A stretch of DNA of 64,000 nucleotides. It comes from an uncultured Sphaerobacteraceae bacterium (GTDB lineage: Bacteria; Chloroflexota; Chloroflexia; Thermomicrobiales; UBA6265). Under the pieces are notes generated by a model, which was given only the letters and a program-made list of their open reading frames with translations, did no database searches and was not told where the DNA came from. Shown in pieces: positions 1,508 to 63,774 of the stretch (within the stretch, counting starts at the first letter, position 1; each line of letters begins with the position of its first letter). Both the position numbers and the translations under genes were made by a program. The stretch is from positions 8,973-72,972 of the forward strand of contig CAZGML010000005.1 of NCBI GenBank assembly GCA_964526965.1. The letters are read 5' to 3'.

Positions 1508-1669
1508 GCCGTGTTTGCTCCTGCCTTCATACTGCACGCCTGTCCGCGCATTCGTACATGGTAACGTGTAGCATACCCTGCATGTTTTCAGTCGAATCCA
1601 TGCTGATCACGCAGGCGAAACCGACACCGGTTGGGTGACTGGTTAATTGCTGATTCAGTGCAGCAACCG

Positions 1670-1678
1670 TGGTATACT
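1670..1678 (+). promoter_or_regulatory. Candidate extended -10 promoter (TGgTATACT) for rpsO
   Basis: TGGTATACT lies about 85 nt upstream of the rpsO ATG. I saw no convincing -35. Confidence 0.35.
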
Positions 1679-1763
1679 CATCGGGTAAGCCCCTCGCCAC
1701 GGGCGTTTTTACGTGTCCTGAAATCTTGACCAGTCAATAATTCGACTAAGGAGATACCGCCGA

Positions 1764-2033
1764 ATGGCGATGCCAGTAGAACAGAAGAAAGATATCATCG
1801 AGAGTGCGAAGGTACATGAGAACGATACTGGTTCCCCAGAGGTCCAGATCGCGATCCTGACCGAGCGCATCCTCGAACTCACCGACCACCTTCGCACCCA
1901 CAAGCAGGATAATCACTCCCGCCGTGGCCTGCTGAAGCTGGTTGGCAAGCGCCGCAAGATGCTGGCGTACCTGCAGAAGACCGATATCGAACGATACCGC
2001 GAAACAGTCGCCCGCCACGGCCTGCGCAAGTAG
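1764..2033 (+). CDS. rpsO: 30S ribosomal protein S15
   Basis: The 89-aa product contains [48 protein letters not shown]. An AAGGAG RBS lies upstream. Confidence 0.97.
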
Positions 2034-2112
2034 GCTCGATGGGATTGACCTGCACACGCGAACACATTGCGTACGACCGATTTAATGAGTCGGAATCGCT
2101 CGCATGAACGAG

Positions 2113-2149
2113 AGCCCGGGGCGCATGTCCTGGGCTTTTGTGTGCTTTG
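2113..2149 (+). terminator. Rho-independent terminator after rpsO
   Basis: The stem AGCCCGG...CCTGGGCT has one bulge and is followed by TTTTGTGTGCTTT. Confidence 0.55.
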
Positions 2150-2222
2150 AAAGGAGGCAAACAGACTAACGTGAGCGCCGGCGGGGCCGGGAGGTATTGG
2201 AGCGAGTCGATCATCCACGTAT

Positions 2223-2277
2223 CGTAGTGGCGATGCTTCGTCATCGCCCAGGGCGGACACAGAGGTCCGCCACTACG
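2223..2277 (+). repeat. Structured palindromic module, copy 1 (outer stem plus two hairpins)
   Basis: CGTAGT-GGCGATG-cttcgt-CATCGCC-cag-GGCGGAC-acagag-GTCCGCC-ACTACG. Confidence 0.85.
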
Positions 2278-2329
2278 AATGCAAACGGTTTGGCAGCACC
2301 TGTGAAGGCCGCATCGATCATCGATGTAT

Positions 2330-2384
2330 CGTAGAGGCGATGCTACGTCATCGCCCAGGGCGGACACAGAGGTCCGCCACTACG
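2330..2384 (+). repeat. Structured palindromic module, copy 2
   Basis: CGTAGA-GGCGATG-ctacgt-CATCGCC-cag-GGCGGAC-acagag-GTCCGCC-ACTACG. Confidence 0.85.
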
Positions 2385-2509
2385 AATGCAAATGGTGTGG
2401 CAGCACCTGTGAAGGTCGCATCGCTCCAGTTCCTCTGGTCTCCAGCAGGCAAAAACAAACATCAACGCTCCGCGCGGAAAGGCCGCGTGGTTTATTCATG
2501 GAGACGTGA

Positions 2510-4798
2510 ATGTCACTACCCCAAGACGTAGAACAGCAAATCAAAGTGGTCAGCACCGAAATCGCTGGTCGCACACTTACCCTGGAAACCGGCCGTATTG
2601 CCGGACTCTCCGATGGTGCCGTCACCGTTCGCTACGGCGATACTATGGTGCTCACCTCGGCAATTGGCGAGCGCGAAGCCAAGGAAGATATGGGCTTCTT
2701 CCCGCTTACCGTCGATTATGAGGAAAGAATGTACTCCGCCGGTAAAATCCCTGGCGGTTTCCCCAAGCGAGAAGGCCGACCCACCGAGGCCGCCGTTCTT
2801 GCTGCACGCCTGACCGACCGCCCCATTCGCCCACTGTTCCCACGTGGATACAAGGCCGAAGTGCAGGTGATCACCACCGTGCTCAGCGCCGACCAGGAGA
2901 ACGATGCCGACATCCTCTCCATTATCGGTGCATCCGCCGGCCTCACCATCGGCCCAGTGCCCTTTGAGGGTCCCGTTGGTGCCGTCCGCATCGGCATGAA
3001 AGATGGCGAGTTCATCATCAACCCCACCTTCGACGAGCGCGATGAAGGCGACCTCGACATGGTGGTGGCCGGTACCGACGACGCCATCATGATGGTTGAG
3101 GGCGAGGCCAAGGAAATCGAAGAAGAGAAGATGGTGCAGGGCATCGAGAAGGCGCATGAAGTCATCCGCCAGATCGTTGCGCTGCAGCACGAGCTCCGCT
3201 CAATGGCTGGCATGGAGAAGTGGCCGTTCGAGAGCCCCGCACGCAACGAAGAACTCTTCGCCGCGGTTGAGGGTGTTATCGGCGATCGCCTCCGCGAAGC
3301 CGTTCGCAACGCAGATAAGGTCGTGCGACTCGAAGCCACCAGCGAACTCCAGGCCGAGGCTCTGGCCCAACTCACCGAAGGCGACGAGGCCCAGTTCACC
3401 GCCGCCGAGGTTAATGAGACCTACGAGGCACTGCTGAAGGACGAAGTTCGCCGCGGAATCCTGGAGGAGGGCATCCGACCGGATGGCCGCTCGCCCGAGG
3501 AAATCCGCCCAATCTGGACCCAGGTCGGCTACCTGCCACGCACCCACGGCTCCGCGCTCTTTACACGCGGCCAGACCCAGGCGCTCACAGTTGCAGCGCT
3601 CGGAAGCATGGCCGAAGAACAGCGGCTGGATTCTATCTCCCCGGCTACCAGCAAGCGCTATATCCATCACTACAACTTCCCGCCCTACAGCGTGGGTGAA
3701 GTCCGCCGTATGCGAGGCGCAAGCCGCCGCGATATCGGCCACGGAGCCCTCGCCGAGCGCGCGTTGATCAACGTGATCCCGCCGGAAGATGAGTTCCCGT
3801 ACACCATTCGCGTCGTGTCGGACATCATGAGCTCCAACGGCTCGTCCTCCATGGCGTCTGTGTGTGGATCCACCATGGCGCTTATGGATGCTGGTATACC
3901 GATCTCCAAGCCGGTTGCCGGTGTGGCCATGGGCCTCATTACCGATGGCAGCGGTGATAACTACACCGTGCTCTCGGATATCCAGGGCATGGAAGACGCC
4001 CTCGGCGATATGGACTTCAAGGTCGCCGGTACGCCCGATGGCGTCACCGCGATCCAGATGGACATCAAGGTCAAGGGCATTTCCTTCGATATCATGCGCC
4101 AGGCACTCAGCCAGGCACTTGTCGGTCGCAAGCACATCCTCGACAAGATGGCCGAAACCATCTCAGAGCCGCGCGCAGAACTGAACAAGTACGCACCGCA
4201 GGTCGTTTCCATCAAGATCGACCAGGCCAAGATCGGCAAGGTCATCGGACCGGGTGGCGCCATGATCCGCGAGATTCAGGAAGAGACCGATTCCAAGATC
4301 AACATCGAGGACGATGGCACCATCTCGATTGCTTCCAGCGATAGCGAAGGCATCGCAAAGGCCAAGGCCAAGATCCAGGAGCTGACGGAAGATATTCCGG
4401 AAGTGAAGGTCGAGCGTGGCGAGATCTACAACGGCAAGGTCGTGAGCATCATGCCGTACGGTGCGTTCGTTGAAATCGCACCAGGCCGGGATGGCCTCGT
4501 GCACATCTCCGAGCTGAGCGAAGATCCAACCATCCGCACCGAGCGCGTGGAAGATGTTGTCAACATGGGTGAGGAAATCACCGTCATGGTGATCGACGTC
4601 GCCCCGAACGGCAAGGTCAGCCTCAGCCGACGTGCTGCACTCACCGGCGAACTGCCAGAGCCCAAGCCACAGCGCCCACGTGGCGGTGGCGGCGGTGGGT
4701 TCCGTGGCGACCGTGGTGGTCGTCGTGACGACCGAGGCCCGCGCGATCGAGGACCACGTGACCGTGGCCCCCGGGATCGCGGCCCACGCGACAACTAA
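2510..4798 (+). CDS. pnp: Polyribonucleotide nucleotidyltransferase (PNPase) with an Arg/Gly-rich C-terminal tail
   Basis: The 762-aa product has FPLTVDYEERMYSAGKIPGGFPKREGRP, a KH motif GKVIGPGGAMIREIQEETD and an S1 motif GKVVSIMPYGAFVEIAPGRDGLVHISEL. The tail reads GGGGGGFRGDRGGRRDDRGPRDRGPRDRGPRDRGPRDN. Confidence 0.97.
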   Translation: MSLPQDVEQQIKVVSTEIAGRTLTLETGRIAGLSDGAVTVRYGDTMVLTSAIGEREAKEDMGFFPLTVDYEERMYSAGKIPGGFPKREGRPTEAAVLAARLTDRPIRPLFPRGYKAEVQVITTVLSADQENDADILSIIGASAGLTIGPVPFEGPVGAVRIGMKDGEFIINPTFDERDEGDLDMVVAGTDDAIMMVEGEAKEIEEEKMVQGIEKAHEVIRQIVALQHELRSMAGMEKWPFESPARNEELFAAVEGVIGDRLREAVRNADKVVRLEATSELQAEALAQLTEGDEAQFTAAEVNETYEALLKDEVRRGILEEGIRPDGRSPEEIRPIWTQVGYLPRTHGSALFTRGQTQALTVAALGSMAEEQRLDSISPATSKRYIHHYNFPPYSVGEVRRMRGASRRDIGHGALAERALINVIPPEDEFPYTIRVVSDIMSSNGSSSMASVCGSTMALMDAGIPISKPVAGVAMGLITDGSGDNYTVLSDIQGMEDALGDMDFKVAGTPDGVTAIQMDIKVKGISFDIMRQALSQALVGRKHILDKMAETISEPRAELNKYAPQVVSIKIDQAKIGKVIGPGGAMIREIQEETDSKINIEDDGTISIASSDSEGIAKAKAKIQELTEDIPEVKVERGEIYNGKVVSIMPYGAFVEIAPGRDGLVHISELSEDPTIRTERVEDVVNMGEEITVMVIDVAPNGKVSLSRRAALTGELPEPKPQRPRGGGGGGFRGDRGGRRDDRGPRDRGPRDRGPRDRGPRDN

Positions 4799-4820
4799 GC
4801 CTGTTTGGTGACGGACGTAG

Positions 4821-4848
4821 GCCCGGGGTTTATCCCCGGGCTTCTCCG
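4821..4848 (+). terminator. Rho-independent terminator after pnp
   Basis: GCCCGGGG-tttat-CCCCGGGC is followed by TTCTCCGT. Confidence 0.6.
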
Positions 4849-4867
4849 TATGTATGGGGTACTGTGA

Positions 4868-5146
4868 ATGACAAATCGGGATCAGATCTTCGCTGACATC
4901 TCCACCGAACGCGACGCACAAGACGCGAAGTTCGGTAACCAGGTCCACTCCATGCCGGTCTGGAGCGCCGTCCTCACAGAGGAGTGCGGTGAGGTGGCCG
5001 AGGCCGCCCTAAGGGTTGTGTTCCACGGCGAACATGACCATCTCGCCCACCTGCGTGAGGAACTGGTTCAGGTCGCTGCCGTGGCCGTGCACATCATCGA
5101 GAAGATCGATAGCGATAACTGGACCCGCGGTGAGGGTTCCCGGTAG
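4868..5146 (+). CDS. Small MazG-like / DUF550-like putative nucleotide pyrophosphohydrolase-fold protein
   Basis: The 92-aa product carries ERDAQDAKFG and W..VLTEECGEVAEA, patterns I associate with MazG-type all-alpha NTP-PPase domains. Confidence 0.45.
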   Translation: MTNRDQIFADISTERDAQDAKFGNQVHSMPVWSAVLTEECGEVAEAALRVVFHGEHDHLAHLREELVQVAAVAVHIIEKIDSDNWTRGEGSR

Positions 5147-5160
5147 TATCGACCTTCGCA

Positions 5161-5219
5161 CGTAGTGGCGATGCTGTGTCATCGCCTGGCCGGGGCGCAC
5201 ACATAGGTGCGCCACTACG
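5161..5219. repeat. Structured palindromic module, copy 3, between convergent genes
   Basis: CGTAGT-GGCGATG-ctgtgt-CATCGCC-tggccgg-GGCGCAC-acatag-GTGCGCC-ACTACG. It overlaps the stop codon (5215-5217) of the minus-strand gene. Confidence 0.85.
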
Positions 5220-5739
5220 GCAACGGAGTCGCGTTATCCTCCGCCCGCTGGGTGGCTTCCAGGGTTTCAGCTGCCTGTGTGGCGATACCCTCAAACCACT
5301 CGGTACCCGATTCCGTACCGAGTACCCAAAACATGAACACACAGCAGGCTATCACCACCAGCGCGATCAAACCCAGCAGAACCCACAGCCATGTGCGACG
5401 CGGACGTCCCCGCGGCGGGCCGAGATCAGACATCGCCCATTCGTCCTGGCTGCTGCTGCGGAGCCGTTCGCGTTCGATCTCCCAATCCGGCTTGCGGTCA
5501 GCAAAACCACCGTCACCGGTATAGGGCTCATTGCCGGGTGGCGGAGGAGGGGCAGCCGATTCCTCGCGCGTTTCCTCGCCGCCAGTGGAGTAGCCGCCCC
5601 AGTCCCGATCCGAATCCAGCGGACTCTTTCCTCGGGGAGCGCTCGTACTTGATGCCCCGGAATCATCAACCGGGGCACCACAGTTAGGGCAGAAATTTGC
5701 GTCGGGGGCGAGCTCGTGCCCGCAATTAGAACAATACAT
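5215..5739 (-). CDS. Zinc-ribbon membrane protein (N-terminal CxxC..CxxC, disordered linker, one TM)
   Basis: The product begins MYCSNCGHELAPDANFCPNCGAPV. It also has a Pro/Gly-rich linker and the TM segment TWLWVLLGLIALVVIACCVFMFWVL. Confidence 0.6.
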   Translation of the reverse strand: MYCSNCGHELAPDANFCPNCGAPVDDSGASSTSAPRGKSPLDSDRDWGGYSTGGEETREESAAPPPPPGNEPYTGDGGFADRKPDWEIERERLRSSSQDEWAMSDLGPPRGRPRRTWLWVLLGLIALVVIACCVFMFWVLGTESGTEWFEGIATQAAETLEATQRAEDNATPLP

Positions 5740-10124: not shown

Positions 10125-10201
10125 GCCCCGTTAGTCTAGTGGCCCAGGACGTCACCCTTTCAAGGTGAAGACCACCGGTTCGAATCCGGTACGGGGTACC
10201 A
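10125..10201 (+). tRNA. tRNA-Glu (anticodon UUC), CCA encoded
   Basis: Manual cloverleaf: acceptor GCCCCGT/ACGGGGT, anticodon stem TCACC/GGTGA, loop CTTTCAA, T arm ACCGG-TTCGAAT-CCGGT. Confidence 0.9.
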
Positions 10202-61460: not shown

Positions 61461-61552
61461 TGGCGGAGGGGGAGGGATTCGAACCCTCGAAGGGTTTTAC
61501 CCCTTACACGATTTCCAATCGTGCGCACTAGGCCAGACTATGCGACCCCTCC
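61461..61552 (-). tRNA. tRNA-Ser (anticodon GGA), long variable arm, CCA encoded
   Basis: Manual fold: acceptor GGAGGGG/CCCCTCC, anticodon arm CACGA-TTGGAAA-TCGTG, T arm GAGGG-TTCGAAT-CCCTC. Confidence 0.9.
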
Positions 61553-61585
61553 ATGCGCCAATGAATGATACCGCAATAATCGCGG

Positions 61586-61672
61586 CGGAGAGGGCGGGAT
61601 TCGAACCCGCGGCGGCTTTCACACCGCACTGCTTTTCGAGAGCAGCACCATAAACCACTCGGACACCTCTCC
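61586..61672 (-). tRNA. tRNA-Ser (anticodon CGA), long variable arm, CCA not encoded
   Basis: Manual fold: acceptor GGAGAGG/CCTCTCC, anticodon arm CTGCT-CTCGAAA-AGCAG, T arm GCGGG-TTCGAAT-CCCGC. Confidence 0.88.
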
Positions 61673-61730
61673 GCGCGAGATTGTACCAGTTTGGCAGGGC
61701 GTTGTCACAAAAAGCCTCCTGTTGTATGCG

Positions 61731-62345
61731 CTATTGCGGCCGGGCAGTGTACCGATTGATACCGACTTTTGTGTTCTCCAGCGAGTCGCCGAGGTCCGCC
61801 AGGATTGGCAGGCGCGCCATCGTATCTGCACCGGGCGGCAACATGATTTCCGCCTGGCGTTGCGCCATTGCTCTGGCGAGTTGCTCAACAATGCGTACTG
61901 CCCGCTCATGGCCGGTGGCGAGGTAGGGATCAATCACGATCAGGTGCACCAATGTGGTATCCACGGAGAGTAGAACCGCTCCTCGGGCGGGATCCTGTGA
62001 TTGGTTCGCTGTCACCCAGATGGTGGCGAGTTCGCCAATCAGGTCATCACGCTCACTGAGATTTCCGAACCGGTCTACTGGAGCGTCTGTCAGGCGGATA
62101 AGCGCCCGCGCATCCCCACGCACTTCTCCCAATAAAGCCACTATGACGTCGTATCGAGACTGCGCCAGAAGTTCGTGATCGAAGACGATCGCCCAGCAAT
62201 GGAGCATCACACGTTCCCCGCTGGATATCAGGTCGCCGTGTATTTCCCGATATTCTGCACGAGACGCACCCTGCGCAGGATCGAATGCAATTTGCGATGA
62301 CTGACGGAGCAAATGAGAAAGCGACATAATGAGCGCTCCTTTCAA
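61731..62345 (-). CDS. Hypothetical protein with no recognisable motif
   Basis: The 204-aa ORF lies 42 nt downstream of the LD-carboxypeptidase gene on the same strand. The start could be the ATG at 62327 (MSLSHLL). Confidence 0.45.
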   Translation of the reverse strand: MKGALIMSLSHLLRQSSQIAFDPAQGASRAEYREIHGDLISSGERVMLHCWAIVFDHELLAQSRYDVIVALLGEVRGDARALIRLTDAPVDRFGNLSERDDLIGELATIWVTANQSQDPARGAVLLSVDTTLVHLIVIDPYLATGHERAVRIVEQLARAMAQRQAEIMLPPGADTMARLPILADLGDSLENTKVGINRYTARPQ

Positions 62346-62387
62346 GGGAGCCTCAGTATACCGGAGCGACTACCGGTATTTCTCGTG

Positions 62388-63422
62388 TCAGGTGGTGGTT
62401 GCTACATAAGGCTCGTCAATCGTCACCGTTGTATTTGGTCCATCAATGGTTGCTTGCACACCTAGCGGCATGGTGATCATTGGGGTGGTGTGCCCGAAAT
62501 CCATGTTGGCAACCACGGGGAAGGAGTAGGGAGCAGTCCGTTCCGTGAGGTACTGCAGGAATCGTCCGTGTTGCACCCTGTCGAAACCGTACGGACGAGC
62601 CACAAGCAGCCCCGCGATTTCATCGAGGACACCCATGCGGGCATAGTCCCCGAACATGATGTCGAACTCTTCCGGGCTGGAACATTCTTCACTTGTTTCG
62701 ATGCACAGAATGGCACCGGAGAAATCTGGCCACCATTTGGTGCCACGCAGATGCTGGAATACCTCAAGGCATCCGCCAATCGTTTTGCCGGTCGCACTAC
62801 TGCTCCGAATCCATTTCCAGCCCGAATTCGGGTGCCTGGTTCGTGATCGTTGGGTGTCTTCACCGGACTCCCAGTCCAGGAACTCATCGGTCCACCAGGT
62901 TGGGCTTTTAATTGGGCCGAGCGGCTCGGTTGAGGTCATGAGGTGCAATGCCGTCTGTAGCGCCTCTGTGGGCATTTCAGGGTGCTCTGCCCAGTCCGTG
63001 AGGAGTCCTGGGCCGTACAACGTCGCGAGGTGACACTCTACCCTGAAGGCGGTATGCAGGATCGTGTTATCCGAGAACCCCATGAAGATCTTCGGATTCG
63101 CCCGGACGAGATCGAAATCGATATGAGGCAGGAGATCAGCGGCGTGTGTACCGCCAATGGTCGCGATCACCATCTTTACACCTGGATCGGCAAACGCTGC
63201 GTGGAGATCATGGATGCGTTCATCGACCGTGCCAGAGACATGACCCCGGTTGCCGAATGCATGGTCACCAATTTCAACTCGAAAGCCAAGCGATTCCAAC
63301 ATCGCCACACCACGCAGGGCTCGCGGTACAAACGTCTCGCCGCCGAACCAACTCGGGCTAATCACCCGAATCGTGTCGCCTCGTTGAAGTGGGGCTGGAT
63401 GCAGGATGTGAGACTGAACCAT
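62388..63422 (-). CDS. S66-family LD-carboxypeptidase (LdcA/MccF-like)
   Basis: The product contains GDTIRVISPSW and the nucleophile context FMGFSDNTILH. The start is the ATG at 63422 after GGGAGG. The upstream part of the ORF-track entry is read-through of a tRNA gene. Confidence 0.8.
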   Translation of the reverse strand: MVQSHILHPAPLQRGDTIRVISPSWFGGETFVPRALRGVAMLESLGFRVEIGDHAFGNRGHVSGTVDERIHDLHAAFADPGVKMVIATIGGTHAADLLPHIDFDLVRANPKIFMGFSDNTILHTAFRVECHLATLYGPGLLTDWAEHPEMPTEALQTALHLMTSTEPLGPIKSPTWWTDEFLDWESGEDTQRSRTRHPNSGWKWIRSSSATGKTIGGCLEVFQHLRGTKWWPDFSGAILCIETSEECSSPEEFDIMFGDYARMGVLDEIAGLLVARPYGFDRVQHGRFLQYLTERTAPYSFPVVANMDFGHTTPMITMPLGVQATIDGPNTTVTIDEPYVATTT

Positions 63423-63489
63423 CTGATTCGACCTCCCGTTGGACAATTCCCATCTCGAATTGGGCGCGTGGGTAAGGAATGGCTGCTTA

Positions 63490-63520
63490 ATCACAAAAAC
63501 CGCCCTGATTGGGGCGGTTT
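63490..63520 (-). terminator. Rho-independent terminator after tRNA-Arg
   Basis: On the minus strand, AAACCGCCC-caatca-GGGCGGTTT is followed by TTGTGATT. Confidence 0.65.
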
Positions 63521-63529
63521 TCGTTCGTG

Positions 63530-63605
63530 TGGTGTGCCCGGCAGGAATCGAACCTGCGACCTTCTGGTCCGCAACCAGACGCTCTATCCCCTGAGCTACG
63601 GGCAC
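63530..63605 (-). tRNA. tRNA-Arg (anticodon GCG), CCA encoded
   Basis: Manual fold: acceptor GTGCCCG/CGGGCAC, D arm GCTC-AGGGGATA-GAGC, anticodon arm TCTGG-TTGCGGA-CCAGA, T arm GCAGG-TTCGATT-CCTGC. Confidence 0.88.
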
Positions 63606-63681
63606 ATGAGGGTGCGAGCCACAGTATAGTCCGCATTCATAAGGAGTTGCAAACTCCTGGACACTTGTGGCCCGGCAACTG

Positions 63682-63774
63682 TGGCGGAGAGGGAGGGATT
63701 CGAACCCTCGATACAGCTTAACACTGCATACTCGCTTAGCAGGCGAGCGCCTTCAACCGCTCGGCCACCTCCCC
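63682..63774 (-). tRNA. tRNA-Ser (anticodon GCU), long variable arm, CCA encoded, G3:U70 in the acceptor stem
   Basis: Manual fold: acceptor GGGGAGG/CCTCTCC, anticodon arm CTCGC-CTGCTAA-GCGAG, T arm GAGGG-TTCGAAT-CCCTC. Confidence 0.88.

Follow-up and report, generated by a model that had tools for sequence, protein, structure and literature searches.

A 55-nt module at the apex of the pnp leader hairpin of a Thermomicrobiales bacterium: a probable doublet of GTAG-tagged REP units

In Escherichia coli and Streptomyces the long duplex in the leader of pnp, the gene for PNPase, is cut by RNase III, and this cut reportedly initiates autoregulation of the enzyme (Robert-Le Meur & Portier 1992; Jarrige et al. 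2001; Gatewood et al. 2011). Hairpins of repetitive extragenic palindromes (REPs) impede 3′–5′ exonucleases such as PNPase. The subject of this report is a 55-nt module that occurs twice, within a tandem duplication, in the spacer between rpsO and pnp on a 64-kb stretch of bacterial DNA (contig CAZGML010000005.1; 'the window' below means the whole 64,000 nt analysed), and a third time shortly downstream of pnp. PNPase homologs place the organism in the Thermomicrobiales (phylum Chloroflexota).

REPs that carry a GTAG tag are found in Chloroflexi, where family GTAG-23 belongs to Thermomicrobium roseum and Roseiflexus castenholzii, and the GTAG elements of T. roseum are located inside small palindromes (Di Nocera, De Gregorio & Rocco 2013, PMC3733652). 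Dimers with GTAG on the outside are termed HH and are the commonest arrangement, dimers of unlike units are heterodimers, and tandem reiteration of GTAG dimers together with flanking DNA has been described for the superfamily (PMC3733652). A REPIN is the presumed unit mobilised by a single-copy REP-associated tyrosine transposase (RAYT) that is flanked by the same REPs (Bertels & Rainey 2011, PMC3116915; PMC2817692), and RAYT genes are always flanked by two inverted REPs (Nunvar et al. 2010, PMC2817692). Against this background, the 55-nt module is probably a doublet of two inverted GTAG-tagged REP units, an HH heterodimer resembling a REPIN or a bacterial interspersed mosaic element (BIME) of type BIME-1, and as such a REP-type element inserted in the pnp leader.

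Anatomy of the repeated module

The tandem units and the three doublets of the window are as follows.

2207–2313, + strand: tandem unit 1 (107 bp), made of local flank, REP doublet and local flank (Tandem Repeats Finder, BLAST, alignment)
2223–2277, + strand: REP doublet 1, an HH heterodimer (covariance model R1, 80.8 bits on + and 56.4 on −; architecture scan; fold)
2314–2420, + strand: tandem unit 2 (107 bp), with 7 differences from unit 1 (Tandem Repeats Finder, sequence, alignment)
2330–2384, + strand: REP doublet 2 (R1, 78.3 bits on + and 53.4 on −; fold)
5161–5219, + strand: REP doublet 3 (R1, 76.6 bits; BLAST, alignment)

Tandem Repeats Finder reports 2207–2423 with a period of 107, 2.0 copies, 93 % matches, no indels and a score of 385, and by BLAST the units are identical at 100 of 107 positions; the two head-to-tail units with seven differences described in a sequence-only reading of this DNA are thus confirmed. 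Pairwise alignment places the differences at unit positions 10, 12, 22, 32, 80, 84 and 101. As that reading had it, all of them are confined to the flanks, loop A and the innermost position of the outer stem, and the hairpin stems are free of them. The unit junctions have a TCG trinucleotide in common (2207–2209, 2314–2316 and 2421–2423). A 43-nt core is matched twice in the window against 0.00 matches expected, and a generic pattern of GTAG, two perfect hairpins and CTAC occurs three times against none in 200 first-order Markov simulations. Chance is excluded as the source of the repeat and the module.

Each half of the module is 25 nt long: one base separates the GTAG tag from a hairpin whose GC-rich stem, a perfect 7 bp, closes a 6-nt loop. 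In doublet 1, half A reads GTAG-T-GGCGATG-CTTCGT-CATCGCC on the + strand (2224–2248) and half B reads GTAG-T-GGCGGAC-CTCTGT-GTCCGCC on the − strand (2252–2276); the full unit strings are CGTAG-T-GGCGATG-CTTCGT-CATCGCC-C (+) and CGTAG-T-GGCGGAC-CTCTGT-GTCCGCC-C (−). Doublet 2 has A at the spacer position after GTAG and CTACGT as loop A, and is otherwise identical to doublet 1. In each of the three window copies the tag GTAG stands at the head of half A when the + strand is read and of half B when the − strand is read, and copies from other phyla have it as well. The covariance model R1, built from six copies, the three of the window plus L017, L038 and L046 of other phyla, was run with filters off and recovered only the three known sites in the 64 kb, with no weaker copies. 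On the reverse strands of the modules it still scores 51–56 bits, against 77–81 bits forward; the module is therefore a quasi-palindrome of two homologous inverted units.

The minimum-free-energy fold of each unit is a three-way junction (−42.7 and −44.4 kcal/mol; z −2.7 and −2.8 against shuffles) with an outer stem CGUAG/CUACG, hairpin A (GGCGAUG-N6-CAUCGCC) and hairpin B (GGCGGAC-ACAGAG-GUCCGCC), which is the fold described for the module in the sequence-only reading. The REP anatomy accounts for its parts. The 'outer stem' arises because the two GTAG tags face each other in tail-to-tail units, and the CGCCC-A-GGGCG palindrome because the tails of the two units abut. Ten outer base pairs (CGTAGTGGCG/CGCCACTACG) are able to pair, and the centroid structure of unit 1 is an alternative, single long hairpin. 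The three-way junction is preferred over one perfect hairpin because the halves differ in their three innermost stem bases, ATG/CAT in A and GAC/GTC in B.

Three of the features that define the GTAG-tagged REP superfamily are thus present: a short (20–40 bp) GC-rich stem–loop unit, an unpaired GTAG at one end of the unit, and inverted dimers reiterated in tandem with their flank (here an HH heterodimer twice, with 52 nt of flank). The conserved linker motifs of E. coli-type BIMEs were not found, the junctions being 3 to ~35 nt long and different in sequence, and the segment between doublets 1 and 2 is local flank that is missing from the third copy. A search of the window against Rfam 15 brought only tRNAs to the gathering threshold and nothing credible at E≤10 in 2040–2520, in agreement with the earlier statement that the module is not a named RNA family.

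A third copy, previously alluded to without a location, is doublet 3. It is located between a 92-aa open reading frame (ORF; 4868–5146, +) and a convergent zinc-ribbon gene (5215–5739, −), and its flanks are unrelated to those of units 1 and 2. Its junction is 7 nt, 4 nt longer than in doublets 1 and 2, and its hairpin B (GGCGCAC/GTGCGCC) has a compensatory G-C to C-G change. No counterpart of doublet 3 is present in the corresponding spacers of relatives, which hold terminator-like hairpins or other repeat families. The 92-aa ORF lies directly 3′ of pnp, has no Pfam or NCBIfam match, and keeps its position in nearly all relatives examined (67–94 aa).

The pnp leader hairpin in related lineages

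A minority of the related Thermomicrobiales lineages have the doublet, which sits at the tip of a pnp leader hairpin; the conserved part of this hairpin is the flanking stem, not the doublet. This enclosing stem had not been part of the sequence-only description. The features of the locus are listed here.

1764–2033, + strand: rpsO, ribosomal protein S15, 89 aa (ORF list; orthologues in relatives carry PF00312 Ribosomal_S15)
2113–2149, + strand: rpsO terminator-like hairpin, AGCCCGGGG...CCTGGGCTTTT (read from the sequence; same motif in every orthologous spacer)
2178–2210, + strand: 5′ arm of the conserved pnp leader stem, CCGGCGGGGCCGGGAGGTATTGGAGCGA plus a GTCGA extension (whole-leader folds; alifold)
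2416–2449, + strand: 3′ arm of the conserved pnp leader stem, TCGCA-TCGCTCCAGTTCCTCTGGTCTCCAGCAGG (whole-leader folds; alifold)
2470–2490, + strand: second conserved leader hairpin, CCGCGCGGAAAGGCCGCGTGG (folds; alifold, compensatory changes in 4 pairs)
2500–2505, + strand: pnp Shine–Dalgarno (SD) sequence GGAGAC (sequence; kept in 9 of 11 orthologous spacers, GGAGAA in L093 and L094)
2510–4798, + strand: pnp, PNPase, 762 aa (ORF list; homologs named polyribonucleotide nucleotidyltransferase of Thermomicrobiales)

The rpsO–pnp spacer (2034–2509, 476 nt) was compared with those of ten relatives' pnp regions, at 82–89 % PNPase identity and ~20 % nucleotide divergence, giving 11 orthologous Thermomicrobiales spacers. 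One locus from the scan for half A (L029) is itself a relative's spacer between rpsO and pnp. A duplex of at least 20 bp is predicted in all 11 leaders. Its arms are nearly identical throughout; 15 bp are invariant by alifold, and the 5-bp extension covaries. The long stem formed by GGAGGYATTGGAGCGA with TCGCTCCAGTTCCTC is invariant but for a compensated CG to TA change in L094. The conservation expected of a pnp leader RNase III hairpin therefore belongs to the enclosing stem, which is invariant or covarying in 11 of 11 spacers.

Variation among the spacers is confined to the apex of this stem, which takes five forms.

Window: two modules
L055/L056: a solo half A plus one module (1.5 modules), with hairpin B GGAGGAC/GTCCTCC carrying compensatory changes
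L052: one decayed module (27 bits), tags and stems broken
L060: a different GTAG-headed hairpin
L054, L057, L059, L091, L092, L093 and L094 (7 of 11): 18–31 nt without a module

Since module presence varies at the apex while the surrounding stem is kept, the module lies outside the conserved structure and probably arrived as an insertion. The module-free relatives include L091, L092 and L054, whose PNPases are 87–89 % identical to that of the window. Absence from the pnp leaders of close relatives had been named in advance as an observation that would count against a pnp-specific regulator; it was looked for and was found for the module. With the module lacking from seven leaders and decayed in an eighth, the proposal that it is a lineage-specific processing or autoregulation structure of the pnp leader is not borne out. 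A similar ATCG junction in L052 and L055 hints at common descent of their modules. The neighbour-joining tree of three concatenated genes is too star-like to separate one gain followed by losses from repeated gains.

A stronger form of that proposal, in which the modules are an adaptive extension of the autoregulatory leader that adds an RNase III/PNPase target and was duplicated for stronger control, is unlikely. The modules are located exactly at the apex of a conserved stem that is itself a candidate RNase III hairpin, and three lineages have a module at the site while a fourth has a different GTAG hairpin; however, an apex of 18–31 nt serves the remaining leaders without one, close relatives included. 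In the window and L055 the module stems have been kept by compensatory changes while adjacent apex sequence diverged, yet the L052 module has lost both its GTAG tags and its stem complementarity. The third window copy is likewise close to pnp but lies downstream of a different gene, and in other phyla the module turns up in unrelated settings. It is decidedly unlikely that the apex is a recurrent site of REP landing or retention (4 of 11 lineages have a GTAG element there) at which REPs were co-opted to tune PNPase autoregulation. If so, the efficiency with which PNPase destroys its own RNase III-cut message could depend on whether the leader has 0, 1, 1.5 or 2 modules.

Judging from conservation and predicted folds, the scaffold around the apex seems to be a genuine cis-regulatory element, possibly one that can switch. 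The whole 366-nt leader folds with z = −7.2. The second hairpin surrounds GGAAAGG in the spacers; the motif is GGAATGG in L093 and is weakly recognisable in L094. GGTCTCC (2437–2443) is predicted to pair with the 5′ arm or, alternatively, with the SD sequence, and the alifold prediction of this anti-SD pairing includes an A-U to U-A change at the last pair. The scaffold has no Rfam match.

Other features of the locus may be noted. A simple terminator scan of 1650–5300 did not call the terminator-like hairpin at 2113–2149, and a sigma-70 promoter scan of the same interval, weakly informative for Chloroflexota, found none in the spacer. Homologs of the pnp product have RNase_PH, PNPase, KH and S1 domains. 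At the 3′ end of pnp a 30-bp tandem repeat (4729–4792) encodes the C-terminal tail ...GGGGGGFRGDRGGRRDDRGPRDRGPRDRGPRDRGPRDN, an arginine/glycine-rich extension past the S1 domain. A terminator-like hairpin 3′ of pnp (4817–4841; GTAGGCCCGGGGTTTATCCCCGGGC, then TTCTCC) likewise starts with GTAG, which is probably coincidence. Five tRNA genes are located in the window, a cluster of four near its end (61464–63774, −) and one at 10125–10198 (+).

Dispersal and mobilisation

An exact-pattern scan for half A, with one genome per species, returned 51 loci. About half were set aside as chance matches in coding regions of Proteobacteria and Actinobacteria (e.g. the Bosea loci). The remainder are clear homologs reading CGTAGGGGCGATGC..G.CATCGCCC, and come from Oscillospiraceae and Faecousia, Ignavibacteria, Zixibacteria, Anaerolineae and other Chloroflexota, and Ardenticatenales. 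Half A is found on 6 contigs of the single Oscillospiraceae genome RGIG9086, and is therefore multi-copy within a genome; it is also found on 4 contigs of a single Faecousia genome. Full A–B doublets with stems and loops nearly the same as those of the window are present at L017, L038 and L046 (Ignavibacteria, Zixibacteria), where they adjoin amidase, GGDEF, UbiA and citrate-synthase genes. A metagenome scan added 30 loci with GC contents of 0.43–0.74, including full doublets in contigs L062, L068, L082 and L089 (0.47–0.64). Viral contigs scanned for half A gave 0 hits, and thus no phage connection.

At least four or five phyla share the stems and loops of the two halves. When 11 distinct doublets were compared, 91 % of cells pair and compensatory change is seen at four pairs, three of them in hairpin B. 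These counts are only modestly informative, as only hairpin B was free to vary; hairpin A shows no variation because the search pattern fixed it. Conservation of both halves over several phyla could reflect a horizontally spreading, undescribed RAYT/REP pair.

Related arrangements were seen during these searches. At L027 1226–1383, and likewise at L008, L009, L022 and L044, a single Oscillospiraceae genome has half-A hairpins in inverted pairs, the two members separated by ~100 bp. The flanks of these pairs are conserved, and many of the pairs lie at the end of a contig; in sequence this looks like a MITE-like (miniature inverted-repeat transposable element) or BIME-like composite. The spacers around pnp in relatives hold at least two further families of GTAG...CTAC hairpin doublets, with stems GGGGAG/GGGCAG or ACCCGGAC..., at the following positions.

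L055: 21262–21316
L056: 4955–5007
L060: 6856–6912 and 9735–9795
L054: 12276–12416 and 12670–12819

REP-type doublets are therefore a general feature of the intergenic DNA of this group. Assorted repeats have expanded the spacer 3′ of the small ORF to 0.5–1 kb in L052 and L055.

The search for a transposase covered the window and the fetched loci except the last four, and matched only L044. The ORF at L044 259–939 (−), from Oscillospiraceae, is the sole Y1-transposase-like ORF among the loci searched. With its REP-encoded insert removed, it scores 75.9 bits against the NCBIfam model NF047646 for REP-associated tyrosine transposase (cutoff 80), 28.5 bits against Pfam Y1_Tnp (cutoff 23) and 25.3 bits against an IS200 model. 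It is bracketed by REPs reading GTAG-C-GGCGGAC-GTCCCT-GTCCGCC with tags outward, which match half B in stem, loop length and spacer length. Four tandem REP copies lie in frame in the 5′ coding part of the gene and encode VAADVPVRPP repeats; downstream of the gene, flank 1–260 holds three tandem ~120-bp units of REP plus flank. As read from its sequence, this is the canonical REPtron layout. The genome of L044 also holds multiple copies of half A. The REP/BIME-like repeat family, the other possibility raised by the sequence-only reading, is accordingly supported at several levels: by the inverted GTAG-tagged halves, by the second, unrelated site in the window, by the unrelated intergenic contexts in other phyla and by the REP of the same stem flanking a RAYT gene.

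The origin of the doublets at pnp may then be outlined. The doublet would have reached the pnp leader by insertion, which may have been favoured at the loop of the leader palindrome. By analogy with REP/RAYT systems, it was probably mobilised by a Y1 HUH transposase (RAYT/TnpAREP) whose recognition signal is the GTAG tag with its hairpin in single-stranded DNA. In the window lineage, the 107-bp segment of doublet and local flanks would then have been duplicated in tandem, probably via slippage or unequal exchange at the 3-nt TCG microhomology (2207, 2314, 2421). The modules are probably co-transcribed in the pnp 5′ untranslated region because they lie between the rpsO terminator and the pnp SD sequence. 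Once transcribed, they would do no more than make the hairpin's tip longer and more branched. Autoregulation could conceivably be affected quantitatively, since RNase III cuts the leader duplex and REP hairpins impede PNPase, though any such effect would be secondary.

Several observations weigh against reading the module as an inserted REP doublet. Within the window the module is limited to 3 copies, and the 2 intergenic sites that hold them both adjoin pnp. In ~185 kb of relatives' pnp-centred DNA, doublets of this family are found only in the pnp leader, and the exact-pattern scan gives just two half-A copies in a relative's genome; the family thus looks low-copy in this lineage and noticeably tied to pnp. 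All of the Thermomicrobiales DNA compared is pnp-centred, and the sole exception to proximity to the pnp leader is L015, a separate contig in the genome of a relative, which carries a solo half A and so speaks for dispersal. Half A comes first on the sense strand at 4 of 4 independent sites flanked by codirectional genes, and the sense strand of the doublets has a few G-U pairs; both would fit a role at the RNA level as well. No RAYT was found, by motif regex or by tblastn with the L044 protein, in the window or any Thermomicrobiales locus searched. The RAYT link rests on a Firmicute genome, and the gene there falls just under the NCBIfam equivalog cutoff. Taken together, a role at pnp or at the RNA level retains a small though not negligible chance.

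A different mobile origin, in which the module arose from the ends of an insertion sequence (of IS200/IS605 type or another) as a non-autonomous MITE or palindrome-associated transposable element (PATE) and was moved by a classical transposase instead of a RAYT, is very unlikely. In Oscillospiraceae and Faecousia half A does lie within longer conserved flanks, often at contig ends, and sometimes as the MITE-like inverted pairs ~100 bp apart, and IS200/IS605 Y1 transposases also recognise subterminal hairpins. However, neither a transposase nor TnpB is located nearby, the three window copies are surrounded by no terminal inverted repeats beyond the REP units and no target-site duplication, and the sole transposase beside such REPs, at L044, fits the RAYT model far better than the IS200 model (75.9 against 25.3 bits). 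A reading of the module as a structured non-coding RNA motif, whose three-way junction would be bound by a protein or ligand and which would act in cis on neighbouring genes in several phyla, is highly improbable: strong cross-phylum conservation that includes the loops, the half-A-first orientation and the few G-U pairs would suit such an RNA, but both strands of the quasi-palindrome fold alike, neighbouring genes share nothing, presence varies among orthologous sites, solo halves and junctions of 3–35 nt are tolerated, Rfam gives no match, and loop conservation is equally expected from recognition by a transposase.

Comparison with known repeat systems

As an inserted REP doublet, the module is a further member of an already known kind of repeat, a GTAG-tagged REP heterodimer amplified in tandem. 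The conspicuous repeat at this locus would thus be a REP-type selfish or domesticated palindrome and not a new riboregulator. The real conserved pnp cis-element of these Thermomicrobiales would be the long invariant stem with the second hairpin and a possible anti-SD pairing. The locus also becomes a documented example of a functional RNA hairpin whose loop received REP doublets that were later amplified together with their flanks. Leaders with and without modules form a series that may act as a natural test of the amount of apex structure compatible with pnp autoregulation, and the cross-phylum conservation of both halves offers a modest lead on RAYT recognition specificity and horizontal spread.

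The likeness to the E. coli and Streptomyces rpsO–pnp leader hairpin, in location between the rpsO terminator and the pnp SD sequence and in the long conserved duplex, belongs to the flanking stem (2178–2210 with 2416–2449) and not to the modules. The hairpin here has no sequence similarity to the E. coli leader and is a candidate RNase III substrate.

Compared with E. coli BIMEs, the modules likewise combine two REP types (Y and Z there) in alternating orientation, reiterated in tandem in the intergenic region of an operon. They differ in having no family-wide linker motifs, in the 52-nt segment between doublets, which is duplicated local flank, and in a junction whose length and sequence vary between copies. 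With REPIN–RAYT systems they share two inverted REPs separated by a short spacer and able to form one long hairpin (the centroid), and the flanking of a RAYT gene by matching REPs is seen in L044. Unlike in REPINs, the halves differ in their three innermost stem bases, the three-way junction is preferred, and the spacer is just 3–7 nt.

The closest likeness is to the GTAG superfamily, judged by its described architecture and not by the consensus of its 24 families. The GTAG tag beside a GC-rich stem (6–13 bp in the superfamily), the short loop and the HH heterodimers are all shared, as are clusters formed by tandem dimers with their flank and sites between codirectional or convergent genes. 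The copy number in this lineage appears low, and the stems and loops of the halves are conserved across phyla, in both of which the modules depart from the superfamily. Just as the T. roseum elements are located inside palindromes, the window doublets are located inside the apex of the leader hairpin.

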